Source: a phage | Direction: 5' to 3' (one strand) | Length of the DNA: 64,000 bases | Sequence record: PZ347775.1 | Shown here: positions 12,920 to 13,375 of the stretch, one piece after another | Layout: each line of letters begins with the position of its first letter | How positions within the stretch are numbered: position 1 is the first letter of the stretch | The notes under the pieces: generated by a model | The model's database searches: none | What the model was told of the DNA's origin: nothing | Seen by the model: only the letters and a program-made list of their open reading frames with translations | Program-made: the position numbers and the translations under genes

Positions 12920-13375
12920 TTATTTTAAATCGTCTGCCCAATCGAGTTTAAGAGGCTCTTTGTATTCACGGTCAAGTACGACCGGAATTTGTACATCACC
13001 GCTAAATGATAAGGGCCCAACATTATAAGACAATGTTATATGCGGTGTGTAATCATCAAAATCATGTGTAGCACCTAGTGCCCGCGCATACATGTGTCGA
13101 CAGCGCAGATATTCAGAATCTAGTACAAGTACAAGAGTCGATCCATCTTGTGTTTTCCATACTTCTAAATGTCCAGAAGAAGCTACTTCAAAACTTCCGC
13201 TTGATGGAACATACGGAACATTTACTCTTGAATAACATATGGTCGAATGAATTTTTTCTCTAGGAACTGGATTAGGAACACGTAAAGAGCGCTGGAGTTC
13301 TTCCAGCGCATCAAGTGTTAATTCTGAAAACTTAGCTGCTACATAAAGACCCGTTGAAAAGTCTTTAAATTCCAT
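12920..13375 (-). CDS. 57B: 2H-phosphoesterase (T4 57B, anti-CBASS nuclease Acb1)
   Basis: 151 aa; two H-x-[ST]-x motifs (HSTI, HITL) of the 2H phosphoesterase fold; position next to 57A. Confidence 0.75.

Follow-up and report, generated by a model that had tools for sequence, protein, structure and literature searches.

A T4-like Escherichia phage carries a gene whose predicted product matches the anti-CBASS protein Acb1 of T4

The 57B locus and its surroundings

We analysed a 64,000-nucleotide stretch of phage DNA (record PZ347775.1), referred to here as the window, with emphasis on an open reading frame on its minus strand at 12920..13375. The frame runs from ATG to TAA, with the stop codon included in these coordinates, and encodes a protein of 151 amino acids. 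A preliminary description of this DNA, made from the sequence alone, had proposed that the frame is the gene found at the 57B position in T4 and a candidate for the counter-defence protein Acb1, based mainly on two H-x-[ST]-x motifs, HSTI and HITL. Its coordinates, protein length and motifs were all exact.

The assignment to the 57B position was borne out. Immediately upstream is gene 57A (13375..13617, minus strand), which encodes the tail-fiber assembly chaperone (Pfam PF17594 GP57, E=2.6e-50) and is 97.5% identical to T4 57A. Also upstream are gene 1, encoding dNMP kinase (PF21448, E=1.4e-103), and a gene for a gp3-like tail protein, such that the gp3, gp1, 57A and 57B genes form a block in the same order as in T4. 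Gene 57A serves as a synteny anchor and takes no part in countering CBASS. Over the surrounding 5 kb, identity is 98.8% to Escherichia phage ECO07P3 and 94-97% to the other listed Tequatrovirus genomes.

The downstream side differs from T4. Whereas acb1 in T4 is adjoined by ipI, the window contains two internal-head-protein genes, one ip7-like at 12199-12519 and one ip9-like at 12575-12847 (both minus strand; assigned from PHROG and homologues), and T4 ipI gave no tblastn match within the window. The ip9-like protein (90 aa) belongs to phrog_7673 and has a homologue in VR25 that is annotated 'ip9', while the ip7-like protein (106 aa) belongs to phrog_2667, is annotated 'ip7' in CC31 and is found also in T2. 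Hobbs et al. reported that ipI of T4 is needed to evade the gmrS/gmrD restriction enzyme (PMC9117128). The ip9-like and ip7-like proteins may be anti-defence cargo.

Relation of the 151-residue protein to T4 Acb1

The preliminary description had suggested alignment to T4 Acb1 as a check. Using the T4 57B product from NC_000866.4 (NP_049750.1) in BLASTP, we found that 151 of 151 residues were identical, with the alignment covering T4 residues 2-152; significant similarity to Acb1, whose absence would have spoken against the proposal, is thus clearly present. At the nucleotide level, the coding sequence differs from that of T4 at 10 positions, all of which are synonymous, a pattern that fits purifying selection. 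Searches with the window protein agreed. The sole significant Pfam match was to PF23474, 'Anti-CBASS protein Acb1' (E=2.6e-60; 202.7 bits, cutoff 27), and extended end to end over the profile (positions 1-144 of 144). A search of the PDB recovered Acb1 of Erwinia phage FBB1 (7T26, apo, and 7T27, with 3'3'-cGAMP; E=4e-62), which aligned over residues 8-148 with ~68% identity across these 141 residues. In NCBIfam, no model matched either Acb1 or Acb2 at E values up to 1.

Homology to the crystal structure 7T26 identifies the protein as having the 2H phosphoesterase fold. The window protein and FBB1 Acb1 share this fold, the HxT/HxT tetrad and the C-terminal lid region; they differ in host genus, in a one-residue insertion in FBB1 after residue 80, and in the first motif, which is HTTI in FBB1 and HSTI here.

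We determined how much weight the two motifs carry. The H-x-[ST]-x motif is found exactly twice in the 151-aa protein, as HSTI (residues 43-46) and as HITL (residues 112-115). From a motif scan, the family alignment and the published T4 residues (PMC9117128), the codons for H43-S44-T45-I46 (T4 H44/T46) lie at 13238..13249 and those for H112-I113-T114-L115 (T4 H113/T115) at 13031..13042, both on the minus strand. When the protein was shuffled 20,000 times, H-x-[ST] occurred 0.75 times on average, and at least two copies were present in 16% of the shuffled sequences (P=0.16). Thus, although both motifs put forward in the preliminary description are present, the pair by itself is weak evidence and not statistically meaningful. 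Homology is what gives it meaning. When nine Acb1 homologues with identities down to 31% were aligned, only 10 columns were invariant, and H43, T45, H112 and T114 accounted for four of these. The HxT/HxT tetrad was invariant in homologues from Krischvirus, Lazarusvirus, Schizotequatrovirus, Pseudotevenvirus, Tulanevirus and a jumbo Salicola phage. In addition to the tetrad, the base-stacking residues Y12, W74, F107 and W147 and the adenine-reading E141 (T4 numbering) were all present, shifted by -1, so that nine of the nine catalytic and ligand-contact residues reported for T4 Acb1 occur in the window protein at an offset of one. It is the identity with T4 57B, and not the motif pair, that decides the Acb1 call.

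The family is widespread. A tblastn search with the window protein matched 1,471 phage records, 499 of them at a minimum of 99% identity. The gp3-gp1-57A-57B order is kept with distant homologues (31-47% identity) in five genera (Krischvirus, Lazarusvirus, Schizotequatrovirus, Pseudotevenvirus and Tulanevirus), but the homologue of the jumbo Salicola phage lies outside this arrangement. In Straboviridae genomes, a place directly downstream of 57A and the dNMP kinase gene is therefore typical of the Acb1 family, but not strictly defining.

That T4 57B encodes Acb1, as the preliminary description stated, is experimentally established: Hobbs et al. (2022) identified it by activity-guided fractionation and demonstrated that the T4 protein cleaves 3'3'-cGAMP and cAAA and protects against CBASS, while cGG, cA4 and 3'2'-cGAMP are not cleaved (PMC9117128). 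The H44A/H113A mutant of T4 Acb1 is catalytically dead (PMC9117128). In the absence of CBASS, T4 lacking acb1 grows normally, but when CBASS is present it replicates >300-fold worse (PMC9117128). Similarly, in a transposon screen of T4, acb1 was dispensable on E. coli K-12, and its read counts were down on a CBASS-expressing host (bioRxiv 10.1101/2025.11.20.689424).

These findings bear on a second reading, in which the protein is a LigT-type 2'-5' RNA ligase or RNA 2',3'-cyclic phosphodiesterase that acts in tRNA or RNA repair. Both PHROG 755 and the RefSeq entry NP_049750.1 label the protein 'RNA ligase', the LigT family (PF13563) shares the two H-x-[ST]-x motifs that are the signature of the 2H superfamily, the 2H fold is common to both, and a tRNA cluster lies ~1.8 kb downstream. 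With lenient thresholds, PF13563 (2_5_RNA_ligase2) was the only other Pfam match, but this match was partial and faint (E=0.11; 13 bits, cutoff 27), far below the 202.7 bits for the Acb1 family. Moreover, LigT substrates are RNA ends, not cyclic oligonucleotide signals, and both biochemistry and genetics identify the identical T4 protein as a cyclic-oligonucleotide nuclease whose loss has no effect on growth when CBASS is absent (PMC9117128). Given the sub-threshold match and the direct biochemistry on the T4 protein, we rejected this identity as extremely unlikely; the name 'RNA ligase' is a legacy 2H-superfamily annotation. Among the sampled records with an identical or near-identical protein, most are labelled 'hypothetical protein' or 'RNA ligase', and PP434423 was the only examined record labelled 'anti-CBASS protein Acb1'.

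We conclude, with a probability of about 97%, that this T4-like Escherichia phage, a Tequatrovirus, carries acb1 (T4 gene 57B) at 12920..13375, and that the product is the 2H-phosphoesterase that degrades CBASS signals. The grounds are the sequence identity with T4 Acb1, the presence of all functional residues and the conserved gene position. The interpretation offered in the preliminary description is thus supported, by the identity with T4 Acb1 as well as by the PF23474 and FBB1 Acb1 matches. T4-type acb1 is an already known and characterised gene, and its occurrence here is no new biology. We infer from the sequence that acb1 is expressed in this particular phage and acts in the same way.

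The start codon and the 57A junction

The one difference from T4 that touches the protein is at its start. DNA alignment of the 57A/57B junction revealed GAATGATGG in T4 and GAATAATGG in this phage. In T4, the junction is ATGATG, with TGA as the 57A stop codon, while in this phage it is TAATG (13373..13377, minus strand; from the sequence and the alignment with T4), in which the TAA that ends 57A shares one base with the acb1 ATG. Since the first ATG of T4 57B is ATA in this phage, acb1 starts at the second methionine of T4, and the product is one methionine shorter. Residues at the very N-terminus are probably unimportant, as the crystallised FBB1 Acb1 construct began at G8 (PMC9117128).

Upstream of acb1, no strong Shine-Dalgarno sequence was evident. 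Thus, expression of acb1 probably depends on coupling to translation of 57A. A scan for promoters and terminators around acb1 yielded 15 sites, compared to 12.9 expected from shuffles. This is no enrichment relative to shuffled sequence, and the scan gives no grounds for assigning acb1 a promoter of its own.

Loss of the T4 start codon, together with the change of the junction from ATGATG/TGA to TAATG, could in principle alter the amount or timing of Acb1, although we consider such an effect very doubtful. If it did occur, it could tune the balance between evading CBASS and triggering Panoptes-type guards. A decaying remnant of acb1, silent or poorly expressed since the T4 first ATG became ATA, is vanishingly unlikely and was rejected, as the frame is intact, an in-frame ATG directly follows and overlaps the 57A stop codon in a typical coupled-translation junction, the 10 differences from T4 are solely synonymous, and T6 and many other phages encode the same 151-aa form with 100% identity.

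Predicted action of Acb1, and other genes in the window

Because the window protein is identical to T4 Acb1 save for the extra N-terminal methionine of the latter, we took mechanism and phenotype from published work on that protein. Upon infection, host CBASS cyclases synthesise cyclic di- and trinucleotides as second messengers, and Acb1, a small metal-independent 2H-phosphoesterase, is expected to bind their products 3'3'-cGAMP, cUA, cAAA and cAAG. Structures of FBB1 Acb1, which have the 2H phosphoesterase fold, showed the bases stacked against Y12, W74, F107 and W147, with the adenine N6 read by E141 (PMC9117128); the corresponding aromatic residues and glutamate of the window protein would hold the ligand likewise. 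Strain in the bound ligand is then predicted to lead the adenosine 2'-OH to attack the adjacent 3'-5' phosphodiester. As acid-base catalysis by H44, T46, H113 and T115 needs no metal and passes through a cyclic-phosphate intermediate to GpAp (PMC9117128), the HxT/HxT tetrad here would be expected to act via a 2',3'-cyclic phosphate intermediate to give the same linear product. With the signal cleaved, the CBASS effector would never be activated, and the phage would escape abortive infection. This T4-like phage therefore carries the gene for a well-characterised counter-defence enzyme, which is presumably active here also.

A second anti-CBASS gene is present in the same window. The Vs.4/Acb2 cyclic-nucleotide sponge (88 aa) is encoded at 1595-1861 on the minus strand (PF24729 Acb2_Tad1_hairpin, E=1e-19; PDB 7UQ2, E=2.8e-54) and shares 95.5% identity with T4 vs.4. 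Like Acb1, it neutralises CBASS signals; unlike Acb1, which cleaves the signal, it has an unrelated fold and sequesters it. The degrading and the sequestering proteins are encoded ~11 kb apart, as in T4. Carriage of both predicts resistance to CBASS signalling that uses adenine-containing 3'-5'-linked cyclic di- and trinucleotides. A further prediction is that the phage is sensitive to Panoptes-type guards, which respond when Acb1 depletes cyclic nucleotides. Acb1 is a liability as well: Tevenvirinae phages with intact acb1 are restricted by Panoptes guard systems of types I and II, and mutants that escape have acb1 inactivated (PMC13577387). These predictions may be of use in annotation and in host-range prediction for phage therapy.

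Other parts of the window were also compared with T4. Three near-identical promoter-like sites on the minus strand, at 12906-12878, 12570-12542 and 12187-12159, precede the ip9-like gene, the ip7-like gene and a 61-aa trna.4-like gene. Each consists of TTTACA or TTTACT, a 17-nt spacer and TACTAT or TATTAT, with an upstream TG. These sites look like repeated T4-type early promoters, in a scan without overall enrichment relative to shuffles.

T4 denV (endonuclease V), ipIII and segB had no match anywhere in the window, and T4 ipII matched only weakly (33% over 75 residues) to a 157-aa protein at 3465-3938. The latter, a DUF7412 internal virion protein, is encoded on the minus strand between a vs.8-like gene (2772-3359, minus strand) and lysozyme e (4344-4838), together with a 105-aa phrog_3966 protein (3955-4272, minus strand). 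An N-terminus of the form MKT(Y/F)(Q/K)EFI is common to the 157-aa, 105-aa and ip9-like proteins, and occurs in the ip7-like protein after a 4-residue leader. The tRNA cluster (10131-11152, minus strand) contains 11 genes, for Arg, His, Asn, Tyr, Met, Thr, Ser, Pro, Gly, Leu and Gln, compared to eight genes in T4, where the cluster is interrupted by the homing endonuclease gene segB.
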